Shown here: positions 7,436-59,633 of the stretch, in pieces
Position numbering within the stretch: the first letter of the stretch is position 1
Layout: each line of letters begins with the position of its first letter
DNA from: Candidatus Doudnabacteria bacterium
GTDB lineage: Bacteria > Patescibacteriota > Doudnabacteria > UBA920
Length of the DNA: 64,000 nt
Assembly (NCBI GenBank): GCA_003151625.1
Contig: PLYC01000007.1
Span: 81,181-145,180, forward strand
Direction of reading: 5' to 3'
Program-made: the position numbers and the translations under genes
Notes under the pieces: model-generated
What the model was told of the DNA's origin: nothing
The model's database searches: none
The model's input: only the letters and a program-made list of their open reading frames with translations

Positions 7436-8758
7436 ATGCCCAAGACTCTAACAATTTTCGTTTGTTCTAATTGCCAATACAAAACTCCGCGCTGGCAGGG
7501 GAAGTGTCAGAATTGCGGGCAGTGGAATACTTTGGAAGAACAGAGGCAAATTTCCAATACCAAATTTCAAATGTCAAATGCGATGGCGCCGGTTGATTTA
7601 GCGTCGCTTGATGTGGATCAGAAGCCCCGGATAAAAACGGGTATTGGGGAATTTGACCAAGTGACCGGCGGCGGTATTGTTCCGGGAAGCCTGATTTTGC
7701 TCGGTGGTGATCCGGGCATTGGCAAATCCACTCTGGCCCTCCAGCTGGCAATGAAAATTGATGCGGAAGTTTTATATGTTTCAGGGGAAGAGTCGGTAAA
7801 CCAAATTAAACTCAGGGCACACCGTATAAATAAAGACCATCGGCTCAACGTTCTTGCCGAGATTTCGCTGGAAACAGTTTTGGCCAGCATCGCCGATCAG
7901 CATCCGGAACTGGTTATTGTCGACTCCATTCAGACAATGTACAGCGAGGAGGTCTCCGGCGTGGCCGGCGGAGTCTCCCAGGTTACCAATGCCGTTCAAC
8001 AAATAATGCGCCTGGCCAAGCAAAACCATATTTCTTTTATTGTTATTGGCCATGTTACCAAAGAAGGCTACTTGGCGGGTCCAAAAACCCTGGAGCATAT
8101 GGTGGATACGGTTTTATATTTGGAAGGGGAGAGGTTTGCCGCTTTTAGGATACTGCGTTGCGTAAAAAATCGTTTTGGCACGACTAATGAAGTCGGCGTG
8201 TTTGAAATGGCCGGAGTTGGGCTGGTGGAAGTTAAAAACCCGTCACAGTTATTTTTGGGCGAAGACAGCATAAAAGCCTCCGGAAACATAATTACTTCCA
8301 TTGTGGAGGGCAATCGCGCGTTGCTTTTGGAAATTCAGGCGCTGACATCGGTCACCAATTTTGGCTACCCAAAGCGCACTACGGCCGGGTTTGATTCCAA
8401 CCGCCTCCAATTGCTCACTGCCATATTAGGCAAGCGCGCGGGGCTGAATTTGAGCAATCAGGACATTTATATCAACGTAGTCGGCGGCCTAAAAATAGAC
8501 GAACCCGCGGCCGACTTAGCCGTAGCCTTAGCCATAGTTTCCAGTTTAAAAGATGTGATAATTCAGGACACCGTCGCGGTAGGCGAGCTCGGCCTCTCCG
8601 GCGAACTCCGTTTTGTGCCGAATTTGGAAAAACGGATTATTGAGGCGGAAAAATTAGGATTCAAAAAAATAATTTGTCCAAAAACAAAAATAACAGGAAA
8701 AAATAAAATTGAGGTCATTCAGGTTAAGACTTTGACGGAAGCTATAAGTAAACTGTAG
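7436..8758 (+). CDS. radA: DNA repair protein RadA/Sms
   Basis: N-terminal C4 zinc finger (CSNCQYKTPRWQGKCQNCGQW), RecA-like Walker A GDPGIGKST, KNRFG motif, and a Lon-like C-terminal domain. Confidence 0.95.
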   Translation: MPKTLTIFVCSNCQYKTPRWQGKCQNCGQWNTLEEQRQISNTKFQMSNAMAPVDLASLDVDQKPRIKTGIGEFDQVTGGGIVPGSLILLGGDPGIGKSTLALQLAMKIDAEVLYVSGEESVNQIKLRAHRINKDHRLNVLAEISLETVLASIADQHPELVIVDSIQTMYSEEVSGVAGGVSQVTNAVQQIMRLAKQNHISFIVIGHVTKEGYLAGPKTLEHMVDTVLYLEGERFAAFRILRCVKNRFGTTNEVGVFEMAGVGLVEVKNPSQLFLGEDSIKASGNIITSIVEGNRALLLEIQALTSVTNFGYPKRTTAGFDSNRLQLLTAILGKRAGLNLSNQDIYINVVGGLKIDEPAADLAVALAIVSSLKDVIIQDTVAVGELGLSGELRFVPNLEKRIIEAEKLGFKKIICPKTKITGKNKIEVIQVKTLTEAISKL

Positions 8759-8826: not shown

Positions 8827-8867
8827 CAGTTTCCCCTCCCTTTACGGGAGGGGCTAGGGGAGGGTGA
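8827..8867. repeat. REP-like palindromic element, family 1 (cagtttCCCCTCCCtt-N-acGGGAGGGGctaGGGGAGGGtga)
   Basis: Near-identical copies at 56811-56851 and 57465-57505. Variant copies lie in frame inside the PPDK_N gene. Confidence 0.8.
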
Positions 8868-9060
8868 TGAGTTTGCGATACCATATATAAATACAAGGAC
8901 CGAACGCAGCTCCACCACGTTCGGCCCTGTCAGGTTTCGGGAGCCCCTCGGTTCCCAAAACAAGCCTTTAAAAGCAAATTAGTTCACCCTGGAGCTATCT
9001 GTTAGCCGCACGGAGCTGGCGGCTATGGATGCACTAATTGGCTTTATGGGCTGTTGTGGT

Positions 9061-9603
9061 TTACTTACCCAGAAGTATCCAGCTGAACACAGATGGAGCC
9101 GATGGCATACCGCTCCGCACATTTGCCATTACATCTGGTTGATTCCGTAATACAGTTCGCCTTCTTCGTGGCGTTCTTTTGATTCCGAGGCCGTTTTCAA
9201 ACACTTTGGAGGTAGCAGCCGGAACATCTTCCGTTGGCGGTTCCGGTTCTACCCCTGATGCTTCGGCGGCTTTTACAATGTTGTCGCATCTTATACAATA
9301 CTGTGCCCAAGGTGCGGCATCCAGCCGTTTGAGTTGCAGGTCTTCCTTGCAGTGTGAGCATATGCCGTAGCTACCGTCGGCAATACGAGCCAACGCAGCT
9401 TTGACTTCCTGAAGAAGGACGCTGTCTCGTTTGAGGTTGAGGATGGCGAGTTCGCGTTCGCCAGCCAGTTGGACTTCATCGAGGGCATCGGGAACGCTTT
9501 GAATTGCGATCCCTGCCCTATTCCGGGGAGCCAACGAAAAGGATAACACTATCGCTTTGGCTTCCAGCATTGATTTGTATTTGTTGACTTCGGTTTGCGT
9601 CAT
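9061..9603 (-). CDS. DksA/TraR-family C4 zinc-finger protein (with C-terminal extension)
   Basis: CSHC...(17)...CIRC zinc-finger spacing and a preceding coiled-coil region typical of DksA/TraR. Local GC is higher than the surroundings. Confidence 0.55.
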   Translation of the reverse strand: MTQTEVNKYKSMLEAKAIVLSFSLAPRNRAGIAIQSVPDALDEVQLAGERELAILNLKRDSVLLQEVKAALARIADGSYGICSHCKEDLQLKRLDAAPWAQYCIRCDNIVKAAEASGVEPEPPTEDVPAATSKVFENGLGIKRTPRRRRTVLRNQPDVMANVRSGMPSAPSVFSWILLGK

Positions 9604-15037: not shown

Positions 15038-16102
15038 CTAAAGCATCGTAATCGGTCTGGACTGGGTAATATAGAATTTCCCGTTTTCAAAAGCCCACTC
15101 AATGTCCTGCGGTTTGCCGTAATGTGTTTCTATATTTTTGCAAATTTTGGCAATTTCCACTATTTGCTTGCCGGTAAGTTTTTGTTTGCCTCCGGTTGCC
15201 TTGTCTAATTTCTTATTTCTATTTCCTGTTTTCTCTCTTACTATGGCAAAAGTTTGCTCGGAAACATTTATGTCCAAAATGGAAAAATTGTTTTTGTGAA
15301 CAATATAAGTGTCCGGAGTAATCATGCCGCCGACAATAGCTTCTCCCAAACCAAAACCGGCTTCCACCACCATTTGGTTCTTGTCTTTGGTTACCGGGTG
15401 CACGGTAAAACTAATTCCGGAAACCTCGCTTTGCACCATCTTTTGCACCACAACCGCCACGGAAATCCTTGTGTTTATTCCCCTCCCTTGCTTGTCCGCC
15501 GTAGCTTTAGCGAAGGAGGGACGGGAGGGGTGGGGGGAGGGTGATTTTTTTGTTTTGTAAAACCCTTTCTCAAAAGCATAAAAAATTGCCCTGGGCGTAA
15601 ATAGCGAAGACCAGCATTTTTTTACACTGGCAATAACATTTTTTTCCGTTACATTCAAATAAGTTTCCAGCTCCCCGGCCCAGGAAGCAACCGATGAGTC
15701 CTCGGCCGTGGCGCTAGATCTAACGGCTACAAACTGGTTTATTCCCCTCCTGCCCGAGGAGGGGTTAGGGGAGGTGGGAGATTTTTTAAACAGCTGATGA
15801 TACGCCTCCATAATCTCTTTCTGCAAATCCTCCGGAATAACCTCATCCAAAATCATCCTGCGGATTTCCGCCGAAGCCTTGTCCACAGAATTAACATCCT
15901 TATGGTTGACTTTTTTCAGCAACGCCTCTATATCCGCCTCAATCTCCGTCTCCTCCAAAAATCTGTCAAAAGCACCCGCAACCACTACAAACCCTTGCGG
16001 CACCGGCAATCCCGCCTTAGTCATTTCCCCGAGCGAGGCTCCCTTGCCCCCAGCAATGTCGACATCTTTTTTTGAAATTTGCCCAAAAGTTTTTATGTGC
16101 AT
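15038..16102 (-). CDS. Stand-alone PPDK_N / PEP-synthase-type ATP-grasp (nucleotide-binding) domain protein, with two in-frame REP insertions
   Basis: GGKGASLGEM motif, VAVRSSATAED, VAVVVQKMV and DIEWAFENGKFYITQSRPIT, which are hallmarks of the PEP synthase / PPDK / rifampin-phosphotransferase ATP-binding domain. Extra segments SPTSPNPSSGRRGIN and KKSPSPHPSRPSFAKATADKQGRGINTR coincide with REP DNA. Confidence 0.8.
   Translation of the reverse strand: MHIKTFGQISKKDVDIAGGKGASLGEMTKAGLPVPQGFVVVAGAFDRFLEETEIEADIEALLKKVNHKDVNSVDKASAEIRRMILDEVIPEDLQKEIMEAYHQLFKKSPTSPNPSSGRRGINQFVAVRSSATAEDSSVASWAGELETYLNVTEKNVIASVKKCWSSLFTPRAIFYAFEKGFYKTKKSPSPHPSRPSFAKATADKQGRGINTRISVAVVVQKMVQSEVSGISFTVHPVTKDKNQMVVEAGFGLGEAIVGGMITPDTYIVHKNNFSILDINVSEQTFAIVREKTGNRNKKLDKATGGKQKLTGKQIVEIAKICKNIETHYGKPQDIEWAFENGKFYITQSRPITML
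15476..15544. repeat. REP family 1 variant (composite with the cgctaaagctacgg hairpin) inserted in frame in the PPDK_N gene
   Basis: ttattcccctcccttg...ccgccgtagctttagcgaaggaggg...acgggaggggtggggggagggtga. Confidence 0.75.
15738..15779. repeat. REP family 1 variant inserted in frame in the PPDK_N gene
   Basis: tttattcccctcc-tgcccga-ggaggggttaggggaggtggga. Confidence 0.7.
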
Positions 16103-16125: not shown

Positions 16126-16548
16126 TCAGTTTTTCGTTAACGTGTAGGACAGGGTTATTGGGTGAATAATGGCGATATTGCGGAAATATTTAAGCTTTAG
16201 AAGATCTTTGTCCATGGTTACAATTAAATCCGCCCCTGAGGCCACGGCACATTCCAGAATTTTGTTGTCTTTGGAATTATTCTTTAAAAAAGTAATTTTT
16301 TCCTCGGGAAACATTAAATTAGGAACTTTTTTTACGAATTCCATAATTTGATTTTTTGTCAGTATGTTGACGATTTTTTCTTCCACAAGCCGTTTTGCGT
16401 TTTTTTCAACTTCTTCTATTATAGCTTCCGAAATAAACAGCGGGTACTCAAATGGCCTGCCCGATATTTTTAAAACCAAATCATAGCAAAAACTCCGCAT
16501 GCCTATGGCCGCAAGGTAGATGTTCGCGTCAAAAACTATCTTAAGCAT
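16126..16548 (-). CDS. PIN-domain toxin (VapC-like)
   Basis: 140 aa. N-terminal MLKIVFDANIY... with conserved acidic residues. Immediately downstream of a small RHH gene. Confidence 0.65.
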   Translation of the reverse strand: MLKIVFDANIYLAAIGMRSFCYDLVLKISGRPFEYPLFISEAIIEEVEKNAKRLVEEKIVNILTKNQIMEFVKKVPNLMFPEEKITFLKNNSKDNKILECAVASGADLIVTMDKDLLKLKYFRNIAIIHPITLSYTLTKN

Positions 16549-16554
16549 ATTGTT

Positions 16555-16794
16555 TTAGCCGAAGAATTTTTGGATATCTTCGTCGGTCTTTATCCCCAGC
16601 TTTTGGAATGCCGGACGCAGTACTGTCTGGATTTCATCAAGCTTTTGCTCAATAAGGTAGCTCCTTAAAGCCTGCTTAACAAGCTGGCTAAAGGTTGTGT
16701 CCTGTTTTATCGCCAATTTTTCAACATCGCTTTTCATATCATTGGGCAGGGAAATGCTGACATTGCTTGTTTGTTTTCTGTTGATAGCCTTCAT
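16555..16794 (-). CDS. Ribbon-helix-helix (CopG/VapB-like) antitoxin
   Basis: 79 aa. The beta-strand SISLPNDM followed by two helices fits an RHH fold. Lies 6 nt upstream of the PIN gene. Confidence 0.55.
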   Translation of the reverse strand: MKAINRKQTSNVSISLPNDMKSDVEKLAIKQDTTFSQLVKQALRSYLIEQKLDEIQTVLRPAFQKLGIKTDEDIQKFFG

Positions 16795-16858: not shown

Positions 16859-16914
16859 GGTTAACAACTTTAGTATGCCTGAAAGATAGAAAGTTGTTAA
16901 CTAAGTTGTTAACT
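16859..16914. promoter_or_regulatory. Inverted/direct repeats gttaacaacttt / aaagttgttaac / aagttgttaac upstream of the RHH antitoxin gene (candidate operator)
   Basis: Perfect 12-bp inverted repeats plus a third direct half-site. Sits at the standard position for TA autoregulation. Confidence 0.45.
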
Positions 16915-18390
16915 TATTATTTTCCTAACAATTCCTTTATTTGCATCCACTTCCACCAATTCGCCGTCTTTAAAATTTTTCATAGCGTTGTTTAAGGCGA
17001 CAATGCAGGGAATGCCAAATTCTCGGGAAACAACTGCCGCGTGGCATGTTAGGCCGCCGACTTCGGTAATTATGGCCGCCGCGCGTTTCATTGCCGGAAG
17101 ATAATCGGTCGTCGTTGCGTAAGTAACTAATATATCGCCCTGTTTAACTTTGCCGTTGTCTTTGGGGTAGGGGACAATACGGATTTTTCCCGTGGCTTTT
17201 CCGGGACTGGCGCAAACCCCTTTATTTTCATCCCCACCCTGAACTGGCTTTACATAACTTTCTATGTACTTAAAAAGTTTTTCGGTTTCTTTGGCTGTAA
17301 ATTCAATCCGTTTTTGGATTTTTCTGTCAAAGCCCCAACCCGCGTATTTGCCCTTTTCTTGAAGCAGTTTAACGGTATCTATTTTTCCCAGTAAGGCTTC
17401 AATTAGTTCCTGTTCAGTTAAAGTCCGTAATTGATTAACAGACAAAAAAAGCCTTTTTGCTATTTCATCGTATAAAGGCAGTAAATAAAAACTCCCAAAG
17501 CTGACAAAATATTCCGCTTCGTTCCTGGTGTCAATGGCTAACCCAAAATCTGTAAATATTTGCAAGTCTTTGGGTTTAAATTTGTACTTATTAATTAAAT
17601 GTTTGATTTCTCGAGCCCTTATTTTAGTATAGTTTTTTATCTGCCCGTATTCTTTATTCAATAGATTCAAGGGCTTACTTAAGTTTACTTTTAGTTCTTG
17701 CTGGTAGTGTTTGGCTTGCCAAGGTTCGCCAAAAGTGAATACCGGTAACCAGCCAAATTTTTTAGCCAATTTTTTTGAAGCTTTATCTAAAGTTGTTGCA
17801 CCATTTTTTATACATAGTATTTCTTCGGTAACCGCCATTTTTTCTTTTAAGGTGGTTGACACTTCTTGTGGTTTGGTAAGTTTAAACAAAACTTGGTTAT
17901 AATCTTCGGAGCCTCTCCGTAGCCCGTATTTATTAACTAAAACTTTTTCCATTAAAGGTGGCCAGTATTCATCCCCAAGCCACGCGAACTGGTCATAAAC
18001 AGCCAGATGTTGAATACGATCGCGAATAAGGCGGAAGTGTTTAATTAGTTGCCAGTTAGTTAGTTTAGAAAAATCAATTTTTTTTGAAACATCTTTTTTT
18101 GATTTGGGAACCAAATTGTAGAAAGTTTTAAGCTTCTTTTCCATGCCTTTAAAATTTTTTGAAGATATCTTTCCAATCCGATTATGCAAGATCTCCAAAT
18201 AGCTTTTGGGCGTGTACATATGCTGGTAACCGTCAGCCAAAGTATGTATGGCTAAGTTGCCTTTGGGAATGCCAAAAAGCTTTTTAAAGTAATGATTCGT
18301 GTTCTCCCCGTGCCACGTTTCACTGTCCAGAGGCAACAAAGCCCATTGGCCCATTTTTACGACCTTGGTTTTAAAGTAGTGGTGTTTCAT
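16909..18390 (-). CDS. RPH/PEP-synthase-family protein: unknown ~390-aa N-terminal domain fused to a C-terminal PEP-utilizing-enzyme mobile (phosphohistidine swivel) domain
   Basis: C-terminus [26 protein letters not shown]...[10 protein letters not shown] is the PEP-utilizers His domain. No ATP-grasp or TIM-barrel domain is present. Paralogous to the adjacent gene. Confidence 0.7.
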
Positions 18391-19892
18391 AGTTTTTTTA
18401 CTATCCCTTTATTCGCGTCCACTTCCACCAAGTCGCCATCTTTTAAAATTTTAGTGGCGATTTTGGTGCCAATTACGCAGGGGATGCCGAGTTCACGGGA
18501 GACTATGGCGGCGTGGGAGGTTATGCCGCCTTGTTCTGTTACTATTGCTCCTGCCAGCTTCATCGCCGGTACTATATCGGGATCTGTTGCGATTGAAACT
18601 AAAATGTCTCCCTTGTTCATTTTGTGGATGTCCTTGGCGCGCAATATAAGTTTAACAACGCCTTTGGCATATCCCGGCTGGGCGGTTTGGCCTATCAGCT
18701 CTTTTTGGTTTTTATCAAAAATACGGCCTAAATTTTTGGTAAGTTTTTTTAAAGTTGAACCGGTATAAATGGCCTCAAAATCTTTTTCTGTGTAAAGAAC
18801 GCATTCTTTAAACCTATTTTGCAAGTCTTTTTTGCTTAAAATTTTACCTCTCAGCAACGCTTCCTTAACCTCGCCGTAAAGCATAAACTGGACTTGGTAG
18901 CGCGTGCGGTTAAGCCTTTTGGCTATTTCCGGCAATAGGGAAGTGTGCATTGAGTAAAGGCAAAACAGCTGGGCATGGCGGCGCACCAGTTTGGTTAAGG
19001 CAAAACCCTGGGCTGTGGTAAAAAGATTCCGGTATTGTTTGGAAATATTGTATTTTTTGTATATGGCCGCTTGTTTGTTTTTTGCTGATTTTAGTTGAGC
19101 CCTCTCTTTTTTTAATATTCCATTGGCGCTAATGCCGCTTGATGCCAAATCTTGCAGTTCTTTTAGGTAGTGCTCCGGACCAAATGGTTTTACATTCCCC
19201 GCGTAAATATAGCCTAAGTGCCCCCATTTGGCGCTGTGTATTTTTAAAGCCGTCTTAAATTCCTCGTCGGGTTTTTTGAGCGATTTTTTGTATTTATTAT
19301 AGATATTCAAAAAATCCTCCCTCTCCTGGGCGACTATGGTTTTTTGGGAGGGGGTGGTTAAAACAATAAAAGCATTTTCCGCGTCCTGTTTGCTGTCGCA
19401 AACCGAATACAGGTAGCTTTTTAGGTTTTTGGTAAAGTTATTATGGAACATATCTACAGCCACAGGCAGCCAGCCGTAGGTGTAGAGTTTGGTGTGAATT
19501 TTGTCCTGCTCCGCGTAAAGTTCCCAAAGATGCTTATTGGAGTATTTTTGCAATGGCAGTTTGGAAGTTTTTTTAGAAAAATTAATTAGGACGTAAGACC
19601 ATTTTAAAATATTTTCATTTAAATTTTTTCCAAAATTTGGCCTTGTGAGTAAAGCTTTTAGTACGCTCTCGCCGACCAAAAAAGAATCCTTTTCTCCCAA
19701 ATAAAAATCCATATGGAATTTTTTGTAATGGGTGAGGACTTTGCTGTAATTTTTTAGGAATGGGTAGCTGGTGTCGCTGCAAAAAGCCGACATTGGAATT
19801 TGGAAAAAGAACACATCGCTGTCCGGAATTTCCTCGGCCAACAGCCATGGGTCTTTGTCTTGTAAAAATTTTGGGGTGGGAGATTTGGGCAT
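18387..19892 (-). CDS. Paralogous RPH/PEP-synthase-family protein (unknown N-terminal domain plus PEP-utilizer His domain)
   Basis: C-terminus [26 protein letters not shown]...[13 protein letters not shown]. It overlaps the downstream paralog by 4 bp. Confidence 0.7.
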
Positions 19893-20085: not shown

Positions 20086-20315
20086 ATTAGGTTATAGCTT
20101 ATGCTATAAATTGCCCATTTTACAGGTTCAGGGCGATTTTTGGCTAACTATAATTCCCTCCTTCGCTAAAGCTACGGAGGGCAAGTGGGTTTTGAGGCTC
20201 TTTAACAATTTGAGGAAAACTTTATTCTCCTTTTGGGGGTACCGACGGCGATTGATTGCTTATGTAATCTGTTGCCATTGGTACCCCGAATTCTGAATTT
20301 CAATAGGAGAAGTTT

Positions 20316-22605: not shown

Positions 22606-23343
22606 CTAGTCTCTGGCAACGGTAAGGCAGATGACTTTTGCCGCGCCGTTTCTTTTTAATACTTTGGCTGCTTCGGCCAGGGTGGCGCCGGTGGTGGTGA
22701 CGTCATCGACCAGAATGAAGGGGTGATTTAAGACTTCAGATTTATGATTTAAGGCCCAGGGGGACAGCGCGAAGGCTCCGTCTACGTTTTTGAGACGGGC
22801 GTCTTTTTTTAGGTCTTTTTGGGTTTTGGTTATTTTTTTTCTTTGTAAAACATCGGCAACAGGTAAATTTAGCTGTTCCGACAATGAACGACATAAAACC
22901 TCGGCTTGGTTAAAGCCGCGCCAGCGTTTACGGGTACTGTGCAAAGGGACAGGGATCAACGAGATATTGGATATTAGGATATTAGGATATTGGGTTTTGA
23001 GTTGCCCGGCTAAAAGTTTTCCGAGTTCCTCATAAATCCCGGGGAGGAAATTATATTTGCCTTTTATTAATATGTCCGCGACTTTTTGGTCGTGGTAGTT
23101 TAAAAACGATATTAAACCGTCCGCGCCGTGCGGAGTTTGGCAGTGGGGATGGGTAAGGCCAAACGGGGTATTTTTTTGGCAGACAATACAGCGCTGGTGT
23201 TCAAGCTTCCCTATTGTAGACTTACAATCCGCACAAATCCACGTTCCTTCCTCTCCGCAGGCCAGGCAGGAAATAGGGAAGAGGGTGTCAAGGACGAAAG
23301 TTTTAACATCAAGGTATAAAGGTTTTATAAAAGTTTGGTACAT
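22606..23343 (-). CDS. comFC: ComF-family protein (phosphoribosyltransferase-like competence protein ComFC) with N-terminal zinc finger
   Basis: CLACGEEGTWICADC...C-x2-C zinc finger. C-terminal PRTase motif ILVDDVTTTGATL. It contains an in-frame aatatcctaatatc tandem at 22961-22992. Confidence 0.75.
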   Translation of the reverse strand: MYQTFIKPLYLDVKTFVLDTLFPISCLACGEEGTWICADCKSTIGKLEHQRCIVCQKNTPFGLTHPHCQTPHGADGLISFLNYHDQKVADILIKGKYNFLPGIYEELGKLLAGQLKTQYPNILISNISLIPVPLHSTRKRWRGFNQAEVLCRSLSEQLNLPVADVLQRKKITKTQKDLKKDARLKNVDGAFALSPWALNHKSEVLNHPFILVDDVTTTGATLAEAAKVLKRNGAAKVICLTVARD

Positions 23344-26223: not shown

Positions 26224-26261
26224 ACAAACTCAGCGACCTAATCAGTGTACATATCAGCGAC
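26224..26261. repeat. Family 3 repeat (inverted orientation): cagcgacctaatcagtgtacatatcagcga
   Basis: Reverse complement of the 26807-26847 copy. Together they bracket recX. Confidence 0.65.
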
Positions 26262-26802
26262 CTATCGGCGGAATATGTATAAACAAAGAAGCAAAACTAA
26301 AGAGCCACAAAACGAACTAAAAGCATACGAGTATGCCGTGTTTTTGCTTTCACTGCAGTTGCGTACGGTCGGCGAAGTAAAAGAGAAAATGGAAAAGCGC
26401 GGGTATGCTTCGAATATTATCGCGCATACGATAACCCAACTGACTGACCAGAAATATTTGAACGACGAACGGTACGCCGAAGTTTATTTGAACAATTTAA
26501 AACAATACAAGCATTTGGGCTACTATGGCATAAAAAGAAAGTTTATGGCCAAGAAATTACCGTCGGAAATAATCGAAAAGGTTTTAAGCGAAGGATTGCC
26601 GCTCGAAGACGAACTAAAAATTGCCAAGAGGCTTTTAAAAAAAGAAGGCGTTGTGGCAAAGGAGTCAGACGATGATTCCGTGGTATCGGATAATTCTTAC
26701 AGAACTTATAACAGCGAACAATCCAAAGACAAACAAAAACTCTCCGCCAAACTAAAAAGCCGCGGTTTCCGCGGCGAGATCATTGCACAGTTATTACGCT
26801 GA
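26245..26802 (+). CDS. recX: RecX-family regulatory protein
   Basis: Three-helix repeat pattern ...AYEYAVFLLSLQLRTVGEVKEKMEKRGY...IIAHTITQLTDQKYLNDERYAEVYLNN... Confidence 0.7.
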   Translation: MYISATYRRNMYKQRSKTKEPQNELKAYEYAVFLLSLQLRTVGEVKEKMEKRGYASNIIAHTITQLTDQKYLNDERYAEVYLNNLKQYKHLGYYGIKRKFMAKKLPSEIIEKVLSEGLPLEDELKIAKRLLKKEGVVAKESDDDSVVSDNSYRTYNSEQSKDKQKLSAKLKSRGFRGEIIAQLLR

Positions 26803-26806
26803 ATAA

Positions 26807-26847
26807 TCGCTGATATGTACGCCGATTAGGTCGCTGAATCTTCAGTT
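26807..26847. repeat. Family 3 repeat: tcgctgatatgtacgccgattaggtcgctgaatcttcagtt
   Basis: A near-identical copy lies at 52996-53036. Inverted copies lie at 26224-26261 and ~27262-27296. Confidence 0.7.
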
Positions 26848-27239
26848 CGCGCTTTGTCGTAGATTACGCGTTTGATTTCAAGTCGCTTGGGTGAAAAATT
26901 TATTAGAAAACCGAGTTTATACTCGGAACCCTTCAAATAATTCCAAAAAGTGGCCTCGTCTTGTTTGTTGACAAAAGGCTTCGATTTTAGTTCCAAGACA
27001 ATTTCATTGTTAACAACTTTGTCTGGAACATAAGTACCAACCTTTTTCCCTTCATAATATATGTTTATTCGTTTCTGGCATTCAACCGTTAATCCTCGTT
27101 TTTCAAGAGCAATAGTAAGGGCGTTGTCCACTATTGATTCTTTAAACATTCCTCGAAATTGCTTCCAGACATCAAAACAGGCTCCTCTAATCTCGTAAGA
27201 CTCCTTTTCATATAAAAAATCTTTAACTAACTTTGACAT
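26826..27239 (-). CDS. GxxExxY-family protein (PD-(D/E)xK-like fold)
   Basis: YEIRGACFDVWKQFRGMFKESIVDNALTIALEKRGL...EIVLELKSK...KLGFLINF matches the GxxExxY family pattern. Bracketed by family 3 repeats. Confidence 0.65.
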   Translation of the reverse strand: MSKLVKDFLYEKESYEIRGACFDVWKQFRGMFKESIVDNALTIALEKRGLTVECQKRINIYYEGKKVGTYVPDKVVNNEIVLELKSKPFVNKQDEATFWNYLKGSEYKLGFLINFSPKRLEIKRVIYDKARTEDSAT

Positions 27240-27306
27240 TCCGCTAGAATTTAACTCTTAGCTTCAGCGACAATATCAGCGTACCTATCAGCGACTGTTC
27301 AGCGGC

Positions 27307-28248
27307 TTATAAATTCATCTCCCTTAATCTTTTAACCCTGTCCGCAATTGGCGGGTGGGTGTTAAATAATCCGGCCAGCCAGCTGCGGGCGCCGTGGGGA
27401 TTTTCCGGGTGGTCGGAGGTGGATTCTTCGCGGTCTTCATGGAAGGGGTTAACTATGTATAAATGCGCGGTGGCGTTGTTGGCTTCCACCAGGGGAGTTT
27501 GGTCGTCGGAAATTTTTTCCAAGGCCAAGGCCAAACCCTCTGGGTAGCGCGTTAAAAGCGCTCCCGAGGCATCGGCTAAATATTCGCGCTGGCGGGAAAC
27601 GGCCAGTTTAATTATTGTGGCTATAAGCGGCGAAAGAATTGCCAAAAGTATGCCGACGGCAAAAAGTATCATCCCAAGGTTGCCGTTGTCTTTGCTATTG
27701 CTTCGGCGTCCGCCAAAAAAAGAAAAACGCAAAAACCAATTGGACATAAGGGCAATCATTCCCACTAATACAACGACCAGCGTCATTAGTCTAATATCAT
27801 AATTTCCAATGTGTGAAAGTTCGTGCGCGGTCACGCCTTCGAGTTCGGTTTTGTCCAGTTTTTGCAAAATACCGGTGGTAAAACAAATCACCGCATGCTT
27901 GGGGTCGCGACCGGTGGCAAAGGCGTTGGGCGCGGGGTCGTTAATAATATAAATTTTCGGCGTGGGGATGCCGGCGGCAATGCAAAGATTTTCTACTATA
28001 TTGTAGAGCTGCTGGTTTGTCGCTCGGTCAACCAACTGTGCCTTGGAAACTGCCAAAGTTATGGAATCGGCAAAGTAATAGGAAAACAGCGCCGAACCAA
28101 CGCTAAAAATAACGGCCAAATATAGAATCGCGTCATTCTGGTAAACCTGCGCAAATACCCAGCCGAGCGCCGAAATCACTATCAAGAAGCTGAATATTAA
28201 AATCCAGCTCTCGCGCTTATTTTTGTTAATGAGATCGTATGTGAGCAT
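27307..28248 (-). CDS. htpX: Zn-dependent protease HtpX (M48 family)
   Basis: HELSHIGNYD (HExxH) and four TM helices. Adjacent to lemA. Confidence 0.85.
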   Translation of the reverse strand: MLTYDLINKNKRESWILIFSFLIVISALGWVFAQVYQNDAILYLAVIFSVGSALFSYYFADSITLAVSKAQLVDRATNQQLYNIVENLCIAAGIPTPKIYIINDPAPNAFATGRDPKHAVICFTTGILQKLDKTELEGVTAHELSHIGNYDIRLMTLVVVLVGMIALMSNWFLRFSFFGGRRSNSKDNGNLGMILFAVGILLAILSPLIATIIKLAVSRQREYLADASGALLTRYPEGLALALEKISDDQTPLVEANNATAHLYIVNPFHEDREESTSDHPENPHGARSWLAGLFNTHPPIADRVKRLREMNL

Positions 28249-34015: not shown

Positions 34016-35564
34016 ATCTTCAAAAGAATACCAGCCCGTCATTGGGTTTGAAATACACGTAGAGCTTGCGACAAAGAGCAAGATGTTTTCTCCGGCCGCG
34101 AATAATCCGGACGAGAAGACGCCGAATGTAAATATTGACGAGATAGTTACGGCCCAGCCCGGGACTTTGCCTGTGGCTAACAAAGAAGCTATTAGGTTGG
34201 CGGCTTTAGTGGGGCTGGCTTTGAATTGTACGATTGATGAATGGAGCAAATTTGACCGCAAACATTATTTTTACCCGGATTTGCCAAAGGGCTATCAAAT
34301 ATCACAGTACGACCAGCCGATATCCAGAGCAGGATATTTGGATATTGAGATATTGGATATTAAGGGGCAGAAAAAAACCAAAAGAATTGGAATCACGCGG
34401 GCTCACTTAGAAGAAGATGCCGGAAAAAATATCCATCCGGAAGGTTTGCCTTATTCGTTGGTGGATTATAACCGTGCCGGTTGCGCTCTGCTGGAAATTG
34501 TTACGGAGCCGGATATAGAAAGTGGGGAAGAGGCTAAGGCCTTTTTAACCGAATTGAGAAATATTATCCGCTATCTCGGTGCTTCTGACTGTGATATGGA
34601 AAAGGGGACTATGCGCTGTGAGCCAAATATCAGCGTTCGAAAACCGGGCGAAACAACTTTGCCAAAGTATAAGTGCGAAGTAAAGAACATCAACTCTTTT
34701 AAATTTGCCGAGGCGGCCATAAATTACGAAATTGCCAGGCATACGGAAATGTTAAAAGAAGGCAAAATGCCGAAACAGGTAACCATGGGCTGGAACGAAA
34801 AAGAAGGTGTAACAGTGGAGCAAAGGGTGAAAGAAGATGCCAACGATTACCGTTATTTTCCGGAGCCGGATTTGCCGGTACTGCAATTTACCAAAGAATA
34901 CTTGGATAAGTTACGAAGCCAAATTCCCGAACTGCCGGCGCAAAAGCGCAAACGCTTTTTGGAAGAATTTGCTTTGCCAGAGGCGGATGTGGAAAATATT
35001 ATAAACTGGAAAGAATTGGCTAGTTATTTTGAGGAAGTTGTCAGCGAAATACAAGAATGGAAATTGGTAGATATTGACCCGTCTCGACTTGGCGGCGCTG
35101 ATAAGCGAGCCGAGGTGGATGGAAATTGGGAAATTAATGGCGCGATAAAACAGGCGGTAAACTGGCTGCTTGGAGATTTTAGCGCGTTGTTAAATGCAAA
35201 GCTTATAAATCCGTCCGACTCCCGTGTTAACCCGGAAAATTTCGCGGAATTAATGAAGTTGATTCTTCAGGGAAAAATTTCCGGCAGCGCGGCTAAAACC
35301 GTGTTTAAAGTAATGTTTGAAAAAGGCGGCGAACCATTATCCATCGTAAACGATTTAGGCCTTCATCAGGTTAGTGACATTGGTGCTATTGAAACCGCTA
35401 TCGATAAAATAATTACGGCCAATGTTAAAGCCGTAACCGACTACAAAACCGGCAACGAAAAATCTTTTGGCTTTTTAGTCGGCCAAACAATGAAAGAGTT
35501 AAAAGGCAAAGGCAACCCGCAGGTAATAAATGAGTTGCTAAAGAAAAAATTAATTACACCATAA
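34002..35564 (+). CDS. gatB: Asp/Glu-tRNA amidotransferase subunit B
   Basis: N-terminal PVIGFEIHVEL and a GatB/YqeY C-terminal domain. Confidence 0.95.
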   Translation: MKEFKSSKEYQPVIGFEIHVELATKSKMFSPAANNPDEKTPNVNIDEIVTAQPGTLPVANKEAIRLAALVGLALNCTIDEWSKFDRKHYFYPDLPKGYQISQYDQPISRAGYLDIEILDIKGQKKTKRIGITRAHLEEDAGKNIHPEGLPYSLVDYNRAGCALLEIVTEPDIESGEEAKAFLTELRNIIRYLGASDCDMEKGTMRCEPNISVRKPGETTLPKYKCEVKNINSFKFAEAAINYEIARHTEMLKEGKMPKQVTMGWNEKEGVTVEQRVKEDANDYRYFPEPDLPVLQFTKEYLDKLRSQIPELPAQKRKRFLEEFALPEADVENIINWKELASYFEEVVSEIQEWKLVDIDPSRLGGADKRAEVDGNWEINGAIKQAVNWLLGDFSALLNAKLINPSDSRVNPENFAELMKLILQGKISGSAAKTVFKVMFEKGGEPLSIVNDLGLHQVSDIGAIETAIDKIITANVKAVTDYKTGNEKSFGFLVGQTMKELKGKGNPQVINELLKKKLITP

Positions 35565-44417: not shown

Positions 44418-44493
44418 CCTAATATCAAAAATATCCTAATATCTTTGAAAGATATTAATAGATATTTAGATATTAGGATATTTAAAAAAACTT
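44418..44493. promoter_or_regulatory. Array of four AATATCCTAATATC sites (two direct, two inverted) between proS and mreB
   Basis: aatatcctaatatc-aaa-aatatcctaatatc...gatattaatagatattta-gatattaggatattt. Related GATATT-rich arrays lie at 59538-59633. Confidence 0.55.
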
Positions 44494-52983: not shown

Positions 52984-52995
52984 ACCGCTGAATAG

Positions 52996-53036
52996 TCTCT
53001 GATATGTACGCTGATTATGTCGCTGAATCTTCAGTT
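52996..53036. repeat. Family 3 repeat solo copy (ctctgatatgtacgctgattatgtcgctgaatcttcagtt)
   Basis: ~90% identical to 26807-26847. Confidence 0.7.
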
Positions 53037-56316: not shown

Positions 56317-56754
56317 ATGTTTGATGAAATGTTTAAAAAAGTTTTAATTATAGAGGATGATTTGGATTTTCGCGATTCCCTGCGAGACAGCTTGTCGGCG
56401 CAAAATTTTGCGGTCAGTACGGCTGATGACGGCGAGCAGGCAATGGAGAGGCTGTTGGCGCATAGGCCCGATGTGGTTATTTTAGATTTGCTGTTGCCCA
56501 AAGTCCACGGGTTTGAAGTATTAAAAAGAATTCGCGCCTATCCGGAAGAAATTTTGGCAAAAACGCCGGTGGTAATTTTGAGCAATCTTTCCAGCCAGAC
56601 CGATGTTGAAAAGGGTCAGGAGCTGGGGGCCAATGCCTATTTTGTTAAAAGCCGGACTAAAAATCAGGAGGTGGTAAATAAGGTTAAAGAAATCCTGTTT
56701 GGCAGTGCGAACGTTAAGACCGAAGAAGTTTGGGATTTTACCAAGGACGCTTAA
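56317..56754 (+). CDS. Stand-alone response-regulator receiver (CheY-like) protein, paralog
   Basis: KKVLIIEDDLDFRDSL...DVVILDLLLPKVHGFEVLKRIR... Confidence 0.8.
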   Translation: MFDEMFKKVLIIEDDLDFRDSLRDSLSAQNFAVSTADDGEQAMERLLAHRPDVVILDLLLPKVHGFEVLKRIRAYPEEILAKTPVVILSNLSSQTDVEKGQELGANAYFVKSRTKNQEVVNKVKEILFGSANVKTEEVWDFTKDA

Positions 56755-56810
56755 AAAAGTTTTTATATAAAAATTGATTCCGTTTAGTTTTTTGCCATCA
56801 TGAACCCCTG

Positions 56811-56851
56811 TAGTTTCCCCTCCCTTAACGGGAGGGGCTAGGGGGAGGGTG
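56811..56851. repeat. REP family 1 copy
   Basis: tagtttcccctcccttaacgggaggggctagggggagggtg. Confidence 0.8.
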
Positions 56852-56960
56852 TAATACGATTTGAATAAAGAAAGGTGATGGGGTTTAGCGCAGTCTAAAC
56901 CCCTTGAGCGTGTAACTAACGGCAGAAAAGCTCTGCGGCCATTGGTTACGAAGAGCGAAA

Positions 56961-57179
56961 TCAGCACCAGACGCGTTGCGGTTTGCGGGTCAGTTCTGGC
57001 GGGGGAGTCGGCAGTGGGAGCCTTTTCCGCAGCCGTGTAAGGCGGGCTGTCAGTACGTTGATTTCCACCTGGAGACCTGGGATTTTTTTCGCGTCCCCTC
57101 CCAGACTTTGCGCCTTGAGACGCTCCTTGTGTAGGTCATCAAGGTTTTGTTGAAGAATCTCTACAACTCTTTTTGTCAT
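56961..57179 (-). CDS. Small hypothetical coiled-coil protein in a REP-flanked GC-rich insert
   Basis: 72 aa, with a strong ribosome-binding site (TAGGAGGGGC 5 nt upstream). Local GC ~55%. Confidence 0.4.
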   Translation of the reverse strand: MTKRVVEILQQNLDDLHKERLKAQSLGGDAKKIPGLQVEINVLTARLTRLRKRLPLPTPPPELTRKPQRVWC

Positions 57180-57233
57180 TGCCCCTCCTATGGGTTATTT
57201 TTGCCGGTGACGCCGGGCAATTATGGTTTATGG

Positions 57234-57419
57234 TTAAACTCCGAAAAAGTTCAGTCCGCCTGAGAAGGCGAAAGAATATTCCGCGAAGTTGTTGGCCGCT
57301 TTTTGGGCGGCGGAAACGTTGACGGACGGCTCAACAGCCGTCACTTGGTCGGAACCCGCAACGGAGTTCTTTTCAAGATTTTGGTCTTGGGCCATAATTG
57401 AATCCTGCCTTGTGGGCAA
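57234..57419 (-). CDS. Small hypothetical protein in a REP-flanked GC-rich insert
   Basis: 61-aa ORF with a weak ribosome-binding site. Confidence 0.25.
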   Translation of the reverse strand: MPTRQDSIMAQDQNLEKNSVAGSDQVTAVEPSVNVSAAQKAANNFAEYSFAFSGGLNFFGV

Positions 57420-57464
57420 GAGACTGGTTTTACCAATCTTTTGCCAGCAAAGCGGTTTGTCCTG

Positions 57465-57505
57465 CAGTTTCCCCTCCCTTGACGGGAGGGGCTAGGGGAG
57501 GGTGA
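57465..57505. repeat. REP family 1 copy (followed by a ccgcc-ttcgctaaagctac-ggcgg hairpin at 57533-57560)
   Basis: cagtttcccctcccttgacgggaggggctaggggagggtga. Confidence 0.8.
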
Positions 57506-57593
57506 TTAAATTTAATTAAGCCTTATTCGTTATCCGCCTTCGCTAAAGCTACGGCGGATTGTTGCACTATTATTTTTTAATTAATGTGCAACA

Positions 57594-57624
57594 AAAAACC
57601 CCGAGCCGCTAGGCTCGGGGTTTA
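57594..57624 (+). terminator. Intrinsic terminator
   Basis: aaaaaacc-ccgagccgctaggctcgg-ggttt. Confidence 0.6.
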
Positions 57625-57929
57625 AAAGTTTTAGATTAAACCAAAACTCTTCCCTTGCCTAGTGGCGACGGAATAATAATGCTAATAATTATGCTGGAAG
57701 AGTAGATTTTTTGCATTTGAGGTATTATAGCAAAGCAAAATTTTTTGTCAAATTTTGTTAAATTAAAAAGAAGCAGCCCACTTGCTTCTATTTTTCACCG
57801 TAGAGGCAAACTTTGTGGGCTGCTGGCGTTTCAAAGGCACCACCTCCTTAATGATGGTTTGGCCGCAAGCTGTTAAGCTATGGCTGTTAAGTTTGCGCGT
57901 TAAGGATCATCTTCTGTTAATTGTGATCC

Positions 57930-58154
57930 TTAGGCATTTATACCGAATTTTGTTGGTTCGGTGTGGTTGCCCGGTAAACACAGGGCAATCCTTCCCCATT
58001 TCCTTGTTAGGCAGATTGTATGTCTGCCGTAAGGTTGGTGTGCAAAGTCGCACCGGATGAGCTCGGTTAGTTCATCCGAGCAGATTACTAACACCACAAC
58101 ACCTTGGGCTTGCAATGCGACAAGAAGTTCATCGCACTCCTTGCTTTGGTTCAT
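57930..58154 (-). pseudogene. Possible remnant of an ABC-transporter ATPase C-terminus (truncated fragment with an intact RBS)
   Basis: GGAGGTGG ribosome-binding site 8 nt upstream. ...ELLVALQAQGVVVLVICSDELTELIRCDF... resembles the conserved C-terminal region of ABC ATPases. No Walker motifs or upstream portion are present. Confidence 0.3.
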
Positions 58155-58445
58155 TATCTGCCACCTCCAAGTAATTTAGAATTCATTCCAAACTACTTGC
58201 AAATAACAAACAAAAAACCTCCCCGGTCGGGAGGCAAGTAAGATTATTTTTGTAAACTTCTATAATCTTATTCTCCTAACCGAAAAGACGGACATCTTAG
58301 TAGTCTTAATCATGCTTGTCTTTACGGTTTTGGAGGAAGAATTGGAATTCATTACAGGAATAGTATACGCTGGCCGGCTTTTTGTCAATCAATAAAAATT
58401 GGTGTAGAATAACTTTACACAATTAAGGTATAGTATACATTATTT

Positions 58446-59537: not shown

Positions 59538-59633
59538 AAGATATTGATAGATATTATTGAAATTAGGATATTATCTGAAATTTCATTAATATCTACCAAT
59601 ATCAATAATATCTATAAATATCCATTTGATTAC

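Follow-up and report, generated by a model that had tools for sequence, protein, structure and literature searches.

In-frame copies of an intrastrand triplex motif in a stand-alone PPDK_N gene of a Candidatus Doudnabacteria genome

In a 64,000-nucleotide stretch of a Candidatus Doudnabacteria genome (contig PLYC01000007.1 of assembly GCA_003151625.1, positions 81,181 to 145,180; hereafter the window), a gene for a stand-alone PPDK_N protein carries two extra GC-rich segments within its open reading frame (ORF), at positions that we call site 1 and site 2. Here we argue that these segments are very likely copies of a small, non-coding, dispersed, G/C-rich intrastrand triplex motif, of the kind known in other bacteria as BoxC, PIT or TMECO, that have been copied into a working gene of a candidate phyla radiation (CPR) bacterium. 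The product of the gene is an ATP-grasp protein resembling the N-domain of phosphoenolpyruvate (PEP) synthase and rifampin phosphotransferase (RPH), and PEP synthases and RPH in the PDB match it with E-values down to 8e-66. All of the family-invariant residues are kept, the gene is identical in independent NCBI, ENA and JGI assemblies, and its 91% amino-acid identity alongside abundant synonymous change indicates that purifying selection acts on it. An earlier note, made from the letters of the window alone, had described the two segments as palindromic repeats inserted in frame and had grouped them with three spacer elements. The places of the two copies, the exact insert peptides, the preserved frame and catalytic motifs of the intact 354-residue ORF, and the grouping into one family were all borne out; the nature of the element was not, as set out below.

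The earlier note took the repeat for a palindrome of the repetitive extragenic palindromic (REP) type, and a plain palindrome is ruled out by the order of its parts: a pyrimidine arm, a loop, a purine arm, a YTA linker and a mirror purine arm. The spacer copies follow the consensus TTTCCCCTCCC-TTnAC-GGGAGGGG-CTA-GGGGAGGG-TGAT, in which the segment after the hairpin is the purine arm written backwards, i.e. a mirror repeat. When this third arm is folded antiparallel onto the purine arm, every triad is G*G.C or A*A.T, as in the plan of a purine-motif intrastrand triplex, and the intact window copies contain only triads that such a triplex allows (G*G.C, A*A.T, T*A.T). Class II of ITxF is defined by three consecutive blocks with loops of 1–6 nt, stems of 6–15 nt and at most one mismatch, and the intact window copies fit this definition. 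The same repeat can also be read as a four-run G-quadruplex motif, and folding with ViennaRNA predicts the 8-bp hairpin alone (−8.9 to −9.4 kcal/mol).

Copies of this kind are far more frequent in the window than chance would give: CCCCTCC-N7-GGAGGGG has four matches against 0.07 expected, and a purpose-written triplex-motif finder (7-nt arms, at most one mismatch) picked out four intact copies from the window, whereas 20 shuffles yielded no hit. When 8-nt arms are used, loop 1 measures 5 nt and loop 2 measures 3 nt at 8833, 15744 and 57471, and the copy at 56817 has a 4-nt linker. Units are 38–50 nt long, or 79 nt where a second repeat, element B, is nested within one. Two of the five window copies lie inside the PPDK_N ORF and three lie in spacers (Table 1). 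A scan of the window against Rfam at gathering thresholds returned three tRNAs only, so that the repeats match no described RNA family. The spacer copies have no T-run, and their tail, GGAGGGTGAT, resembles a strong Shine–Dalgarno sequence, yet no ORF starts downstream.

The site-1 unit reads in frame as KKSPTSPNPSSGRRGIN and the site-2 segment as KKSPSPHPSRPSFAKATADKQGRGIN. The latter, which had been treated as a single repeat, is a composite: in alignment, a clean 30-nt block sits between the TTG and AC of its loop 1, and removal of this block restores the loop TTGAC, as in the spacer copy at 57468. The block is element B, a hairpin repeat with a conserved 15-nt loop, TTCGCTAAAGCTACG, and covarying stems (CCTCC/GGAGG vs CCGCC/GGCGG), which at site 2 encodes PSFAKATADK. 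Inverted matches to it occur at 20155–20185 (31 nt, 94%) and 57534–57558 (25 nt, 96%). The same nesting of B within site 2 is present in the homolog P0002, and the peptide of P0025 suggests that B has nested independently at another position there.

The recurrent nature of these insertions is most apparent among the 120 best homologs, all of which are stand-alone PPDK_N proteins. Both inserts are absent from 74 of them, at least one is present in 46, and 11 have both. Site 1 has a baseline of three residues in 77 homologs and an insert of 12–42 residues in 42; site 2 has a baseline of seven residues in 105 and an insert in the other 15. The inserts are of many unrelated types and occur in both orientations (e.g. 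SPxPS..GRG, PPFVKGG, SPPLRGRGKGRG, AKADKSARYNRL, LRQAQGE), and every in-gene insert examined as DNA proved to be a triplex motif. On a neighbour-joining tree built from 272 columns outside both sites, filled alleles are scattered, each beside an empty sister; amino-acid identity away from the sites is 96% for the filled/empty pair P0004/P0014, 93% for P0029/P0074 and 90% for P0009/P0023. The insert of P0005 belongs to the CCCTCTCCC type, as does a spacer copy that lies 1 kb downstream of it. Moreover, one 50-nt unit, AAAAAATCTCCCACCTCCCCTAACCCCTCCTCGGGCAGGAGGGGAATAAA, occupies site 1 in the window, P0002 and P0004 and is found at site 2 in P0003 (49 of 50 nt identical), where site 1 holds a different element. 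The occurrence of one unit at two sites is decisive against ancestral loops. Because the inserts differ in sequence and are present or absent between sisters that are 93–96% identical, they point to recurrent insertions or swaps. The earlier note had held that the same extra segments in homologs from unrelated lineages would mean ancestral loops; homologs do have segments at the same two sites, and these are different repeats. Because relatives hold different repeats at the same two loops, the motifs behave as mobile DNA that proteins can absorb.

The motif is neither confined to this gene nor special to CPR genomes. A scan of one genome per species with the pattern CCCCTCC-N7-GGAGGGG-N-TAGGGGAGG returned at least 120 stretches in genomes of many phyla; hosts among the matches listed are Omnitrophota, Planctomycetota, Nitrospirota, Thermodesulfobacteriota, Patescibacteria, Poribacteria, Chlamydiae, Methylococcaceae, Chloroflexota and others, and the flanks of these cross-phylum matches often equal the window consensus. 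In 121 distinct copies among the matches listed, the eighth triad is C.G*G in 72, T.A*T in 44 and something else in five, a pattern that reads as three-way covariation following triplex rules. At least 27 of the cross-phylum matches listed lie in reading frames open for 60 codons or more on both sides, and Pfam-confirmed genes with an in-frame motif include those for MgsA/RarA, Lgt, a class-V aminotransferase, MnmA and SecA. The same inter-domain linker of MgsA/RarA is filled in one Patescibacteria and one Planctomycetota genome. The four stop-free readings of the motif (SPNPS.., PPLTPP.., PLLxKEGLGEV and SPPxxGGxRGG) were all seen; the other two run through TAG/TAA and are not expected in intact genes. 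The subfamily found at site 1 occurs at 23 metagenome sites with unrelated flanks, mostly in spacers and some in other genes, one of these in Ca. Andersenbacteria. The sharing of a motif subfamily with Ca. Andersenbacteria and the names given to homologs both place the window, whose contig derives from a groundwater-type metagenome, in the CPR.

Several further observations concern the company these motifs keep. Some proteins hold several repeat-derived inserts (at loci L056 from Nitrospinae, L023 from Andersenbacteria, L062 and L103): a helicase-nuclease-like ORF has at least five (SPSPNPSHQGRG, PLPLRERVRVRG, SPPCEGG..), Lgt has two, and an aminotransferase has a C6-type insert (TPPPYEGGGRGA) plus a CCCCTCC-type insert. 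Triplex motifs are often paired about 70–170 nt apart, inverted or direct (L157 12522–12655, L162 4381–4532, L083 817–924, L021 2168–2371), echoing the inverted pairs described for TMECO in Escherichia coli. In the left flanks at L135, L137, L139 and L140, copies of the site-1 subfamily often follow a different GC-rich hairpin repeat (CCCCTCGACTaCGCTCGGGG..AATATACTC), which suggests mosaic clusters of different small repeats, similar to bacterial interspersed mosaic elements.

The closest described relatives are the elements known first as BoxC, then as PIT elements and then as TMECO, with the pattern CCCTCNCCC N3-6 GGGNGAGGG N3 GGGNGAGGG (Hoyne and Maher, 2000, 2002; Holder et al., 2015, PMC4666352). 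TMECO has 3610 copies in 262 proteobacterial genomes, is invariably intergenic in E. coli K-12, is without promoter or terminator activity or a link to transposons, and is associated with local sequence instability (PMC4666352). The likeness lies in the order of parts, the 3-nt linker (TTA/CTA/TCG), G/C-rich arms of 7–9 nt, dispersed copies with conserved arms and variable loops, and the want of a known transposon link. The window differs from E. coli K-12 in that two copies lie within a gene, in that the host is a CPR bacterium, and in that one copy is itself the target of a second repeat (B). A spacer copy from a CPR relative (L002), used as a query, gave matches at 81–85% identity to E. coli spacers that carry no annotation, in 4908 of 5426 genomes. 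The P0005 in-gene insert fits the published TMECO pattern exactly, as does a spacer copy in the P0005 genome; this insert and the E. coli alx–sstT spacer have in common CCCTCTCCCTT and all 22 nt of GGGAGAGGGTCGGGGTGAGGGT, which comprises the purine arm, linker and mirror arm. In the window copies the arms read CCCCTCC(C/T), not CCCTCNCCC, so that the exact pattern does not fit them, and we therefore classify the window element, on its arm sequences, as a sister variant and not as TMECO proper.

At the DNA level, the inserts are better conserved than the gene around them. Between the window and P0002, the genes are 85% identical in nucleotides and use the same codon at 67.6% of conserved residues, and the site-1 insert is identical at 57 of 57 nt and 19 of 19 codons (about 6e-4 by chance). 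In comparison with P0004 and P0003, changes in the core are confined to loop 1 and the 24 arm positions are unchanged. These identities indicate that the element is conserved as DNA. The flanks, too, follow the insert. At site 2, FYRFEKKxH becomes FY[A/G]FEKxxY in filled alleles, with the change from R to A/G in 14 of 15 filled and none of 105 empty alleles and that from H to Y in 14 of 15 filled and one of 105 empty; at site 1, F is replaced by Y in 33 of 42 filled vs 12 of 78 empty alleles. A frameshift origin of the R-to-A change was checked by eye and rejected.

This linkage is not just point-mutational compensation, because the divergence of the sister pairs is patch-like and because some flanks are identical between distant lineages. 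Between P0004 and P0014, stretches of about 270 nt show no difference, but immediately upstream of site 1 the two diverge at 21 of 45 nt; identity between P0029 and P0074 is 91.5%, and 10–13 of 45 nt differ around site 2, including a Ser codon (AGT vs TCA). P0029 and the distant window clade have in common 20 identical flanking nucleotides, TTTGAGAAAGGGTTTTACAA, at which their sisters differ. Over the whole gene, L005 (P0014) and L008 (P0004) alternate between blocks of about 270 nt with no difference and blocks with 8–21 differences per 45 nt, a mosaic that indicates that closely related CPR populations, all from a single study, often recombine by homology. The simplest reading of these comparisons is one in which homologous recombination exchanges filled and empty patches, in addition to insertions and swaps that arose independently several times; convergent selection on the flanks may add to the linkage.

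Patterns such as these invite bolder readings. One that we entertain only tentatively, and think rather unlikely, is that intrastrand triplex motifs constitute one ancient, pan-bacterial mobile family of about 38 nt, common near base for base to E. coli and CPR, whose three-arm structure is recognised by a conserved host or other enzyme, and which would be homing-like and geneless, with in-frame hot spots in essential genes, mutual swaps, and alleles that spread with co-conversion of their flanks. A narrower proposal, which strikes us as improbable, is that the two PPDK_N positions are actively targeted and the filled allele spreads with flank co-conversion, in which case selection on random insertions would not be the cause of the pattern. 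Such site-directed insertion would account for the filling of the same two sites in 46 of 120 homologs across the tree, for the tight link between flank states and occupancy, for the flank common to P0029 and the window clade, for the patch-like divergence around the sites in otherwise near-identical genes, and for the K-x-[FV]-x-VAV strand that follows both sites. However, the inserted repeats are of many unrelated types and in both orientations; the motif also occurs in unrelated genes and in spacers, with a common flank of only T at −2 and Y at −1; and no endonuclease or other enzyme has been linked to it. Selection for permissive loops would also explain the filling of MgsA at one linker in two phyla.

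The positions of the inserts in the protein agree with such permissiveness. In an AlphaFold2 model built from a 29-sequence alignment (pLDDT 79.3), pLDDT falls below 50 at residues 109–121, which are site 1, between the helix 91–104 and the strand 125–131, and at residues 185–211, which are site 2, between the helix 170–178 and the strand 215–221; the third such segment, residues 133–143, is the usual flexible nucleotide-binding loop. Both inserts are thus predicted to lie in disordered helix-to-strand loops, and alignments to solved PEP synthases and rifampin phosphotransferases break into two stretches with site 2 skipped, in agreement with the earlier statement that homologs have short loops at these positions. 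Could the loops then be of use to the protein? Pro/Ser/Gly/Arg-rich segments might, for example, dock the neighbouring partners with PEP-utilizers domains, and in favour of such exaptation, diverged lineages retain inserts that leave the reading frame unbroken, filled sites repeatedly show aromatic and small-residue changes in their flanks, and site 1 abuts the VAVRSSATAED nucleotide-binding strand and loop. We nonetheless hold exaptation to be very unlikely: conservation lies at synonymous sites and in the DNA arms and not in the peptide, whose sequence, length and orientation vary widely, most homologs have no inserts, and the loops are predicted to be disordered. Ancestral variable loops that only look like spacer repeats are in effect ruled out, as are artefacts of assembly, by the short baselines in most homologs, by the near-identity of the inserts as DNA to dispersed copies in the same and other genomes and by the agreement of the independent assemblies, even though the site-1 loop varies in length in other PEP synthases.

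We therefore return to copying of the triplex motif into a working gene as the preferred explanation; the evidence supports that copying occurs, that the arms are preserved and that proteins act as a filter on the places in which copies last. Insertions would occur widely, and those that survive would be the ones in permissive surface loops and in one of the four stop-free combinations, out of six, of frame and orientation, where they would be translated as Pro/Ser/Gly/Arg-rich loops. Arms that stay identical while the host gene diverges would reflect either a constraint at the DNA level, namely triple complementarity for a purine-motif triplex in single-stranded DNA, or repeated conversion. 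Filled and empty alleles would be shuffled between lineages by homologous recombination of short patches, so that flank residues would covary with the insert. As to the copying itself, we suggest with low confidence a structure-directed, single-strand DNA mechanism that leaves no target duplication. Conserved boundaries of the copies are a T at −2 and a pyrimidine at −1 on the side of the pyrimidine arm and some three bases that follow the mirror arm. Visual inspection gave the impression that CAG..TTT and AAACAAAAA are repeated about the two genic copies, which could not be put on an objective footing.

A number of points weigh against this explanation. Pfam scans of 56 window ORFs gave no transposase, and among 124 copies no target-site duplication was found (longest flank match on average 4.28 nt, vs 4.14 nt in shuffled pairings). 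GC skew is positive all along the window, and its five motifs all lie on the + strand; replication-strand bias was nevertheless rejected as a general rule, as at 98 loci of other genomes the G-rich strand of the motif coincides with the locally G-rich strand in 48 and with the opposite strand in 50. Viral contigs seldom contain the motif (nine stretches in 2.9 million contigs), a count on which a phage vector was also rejected. TMECO single-stranded DNA forms a triplex in vitro, as seen by circular dichroism and nuclear magnetic resonance, but no such structure was detected in vivo, and RNA does not form triplexes of the purine-motif type (PMC4666352). The three-way covariation amounts essentially to two subfamilies and could hence be shared descent. 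Translation of the inserts is an inference. The homolog set consists of intact predicted proteins only, which disrupted alleles would escape, and a selection filter alone does not explain the concentration on two sites.

Known systems of small repeats within genes resemble the inserts only in part. The earlier note drew a parallel with the Rickettsia palindromic elements (RPEs), and it stands for the kind of event: selfish repeat DNA lies in frame within conserved genes at sites compatible with function, as the PPDK_N inserts do. Membership does not follow, in that RPEs are Rickettsia-restricted long palindromes of about 105–146 bp (Ogata et al., 2000, as tabulated in PMC3184786), in contrast to the cross-phylum, 38–50-nt triplex design here, and no sequence relationship was seen. 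REPs of the GTAG/CGTC class are 20–40-bp hairpins that occur inside genes of several species, often genes for DNA replication or repair, where they encode 20–30 amino acids; in recB of two Xanthomonas species, nearly the same site is occupied by different REPs, and GTAG-type REPs are linked to RAYT transposases (Di Nocera et al., 2013, PMC3733652). The likeness is that of short, hairpin-forming repeats inside genes. Those elements are plain hairpins tagged with GTAG or CGTC, whereas ours is an untagged, three-arm motif with conserved ends T-Y (ahead of the pyrimidine arm) and K-D-K (behind the mirror arm), and no RAYT (IS200/IS605-like Y1 transposase) was found by Pfam among 56 ORFs of the window. 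The REP assignment is not supported. A miniature inverted-repeat transposable element was considered and rejected, there being no terminal inverted repeats beyond the internal hairpin and no target-site duplication. Very small cyanobacterial repeats, the subject of work by Elhai and colleagues in 2008, reportedly insert into genes and into each other; we mention them as a lead only. In the literature, in-frame insertions specific to CPR or involving triplex motifs were not found beyond the reports PMC4666352, PMC3184786 and PMC3733652.

The features of the window that bear on this account are collected in Table 1.

Table 1. Host gene, triplex motifs and element B copies in the window (positions are those of the window)
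Feature	Positions	Strand	Remarks
Host gene, stand-alone PPDK_N	15038–16102	−	Intact ORF, 354 aa; Pfam PF01326, E = 1.8e-97, residues 15–353
Site-1 unit	15738–15787	+ (antisense to gene)	From repeat search and finder; pyrimidine arm CCCCTCCT 15744–15751; loop 15752–15756; purine arm AGGAGGGG 15757–15764; linker TTA 15765–15767; mirror arm GGGGAGGT 15768–15775
Site-2 composite	15474–15552	+	Triplex motif, loop 1 split by element B; pyrimidine arm CCCCTCCC 15480–15487; purine arm GGGAGGGG 15523–15530; degenerate linker; mirror arm GGGGGAGGG 15533–15541
Element B, site-2 copy	15491–15520	−	30-nt hairpin repeat in loop 1 of the site-2 motif
Triplex motif, spacer copy	8830–8868	+	Between convergent radA-like 7436–8758 (+) and dksA-like 9061–9603 (−)
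Triplex motif, spacer copy	56814–56852	+	Downstream of response-regulator gene 56317–56754
Triplex motif, spacer copy	57468–57506	+	ORF-poor stretch, 26 nt upstream of a B copy
Element B, spacer copy	20155–20185	+	Between divergent genes
Element B, spacer copy	57532–57559	+	Stem ATCCGCC/GGCGGAT

The surroundings of the gene suggest a setting for its product. Stand-alone PPDK_N is always adjoined by two to five paralogous proteins of about 480–500 amino acids (window 16909–19892, − strand; L001 833–6715; L002 1–6090 and 8665–9996), in which the family match is limited to the C-terminal 70 or so residues, a PEP-utilizers swivel domain. Also nearby are an ECF-type sigma factor, a DUF5667/DUF5666 protein and, in some loci, an HAD hydrolase. 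From this arrangement, the locus looks like a PEP-synthase/rifampin-phosphotransferase-type enzyme divided between a single ATP-grasp subunit and several alternative phospho-carrier/substrate subunits. In the window, a pair of genes for an RHH antitoxin and a PIN toxin (16126–16794, − strand) separates PPDK_N from the first PEP-utilizers gene; a similar pair is present elsewhere in L004. Because the pair is absent from the syntenic loci L001 and L002, it is probably a recent insertion into the operon.

Other parts of the window hold repeats and spacers of their own interest. An ORF-poor stretch of 1.7 kb (56755–58445) follows nusG-L11-L1 and the response regulator, where L10 and L7/L12 are expected; it contains two triplex motifs, one B copy and a terminator-like hairpin at about 57598–57625, and has no Rfam match. 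An unrelated repeat family of 46–51 nt (TCAGCGAC..ATATCAGCGAC..), direct and inverted, occurs at 26230–26276, 26792–26847, 27260–27310 and 52985–53036; its copies flank both a recX-like gene and a PDDEXK_3 nuclease gene (26826–27239), with one further copy after nusG, and could be the ends of a small mobile cassette. The AT-rich sequence GATATT(A/T)GGATATT recurs in spacers (22965–22999, 34328–34354, 44456–44482 and 59540–59622), with one 32-nt inverted repeat, and may be a regulatory or promoter-associated site.

In-frame insertions of REPs and RPEs, and triplex motifs themselves, were each already known. What is new here is the triplex motif as the inserted element, its recurrence with swaps and nesting at two hot spots of one CPR gene family, the link to recombinant flanks, and the same behaviour in housekeeping genes of several phyla. 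Since the 1990s, BoxC/PIT/TMECO elements have been without an assigned function or mode of spread and have been described as strictly intergenic in E. coli. Comparison of filled and empty sites in one gene now provides the first clear evidence that motifs of this class move, through one unit at two sites, a second repeat nested within a copy and the swapping of one motif variant for another, and suggests that the motif can be absorbed into essential proteins across phyla. Low-complexity segments such as SPxPS...GRG, PLLxKEGLGEV and FAKATADK in proteins from metagenome-assembled genomes are accordingly better read as repeat-derived inserts than as lineage-specific domains. The PPDK_N family offers a natural system for the copying agent, for the role of the triplex, and for the tolerance of proteins to such inserts, including the repeatable substitutions that accompany them in the flanks.

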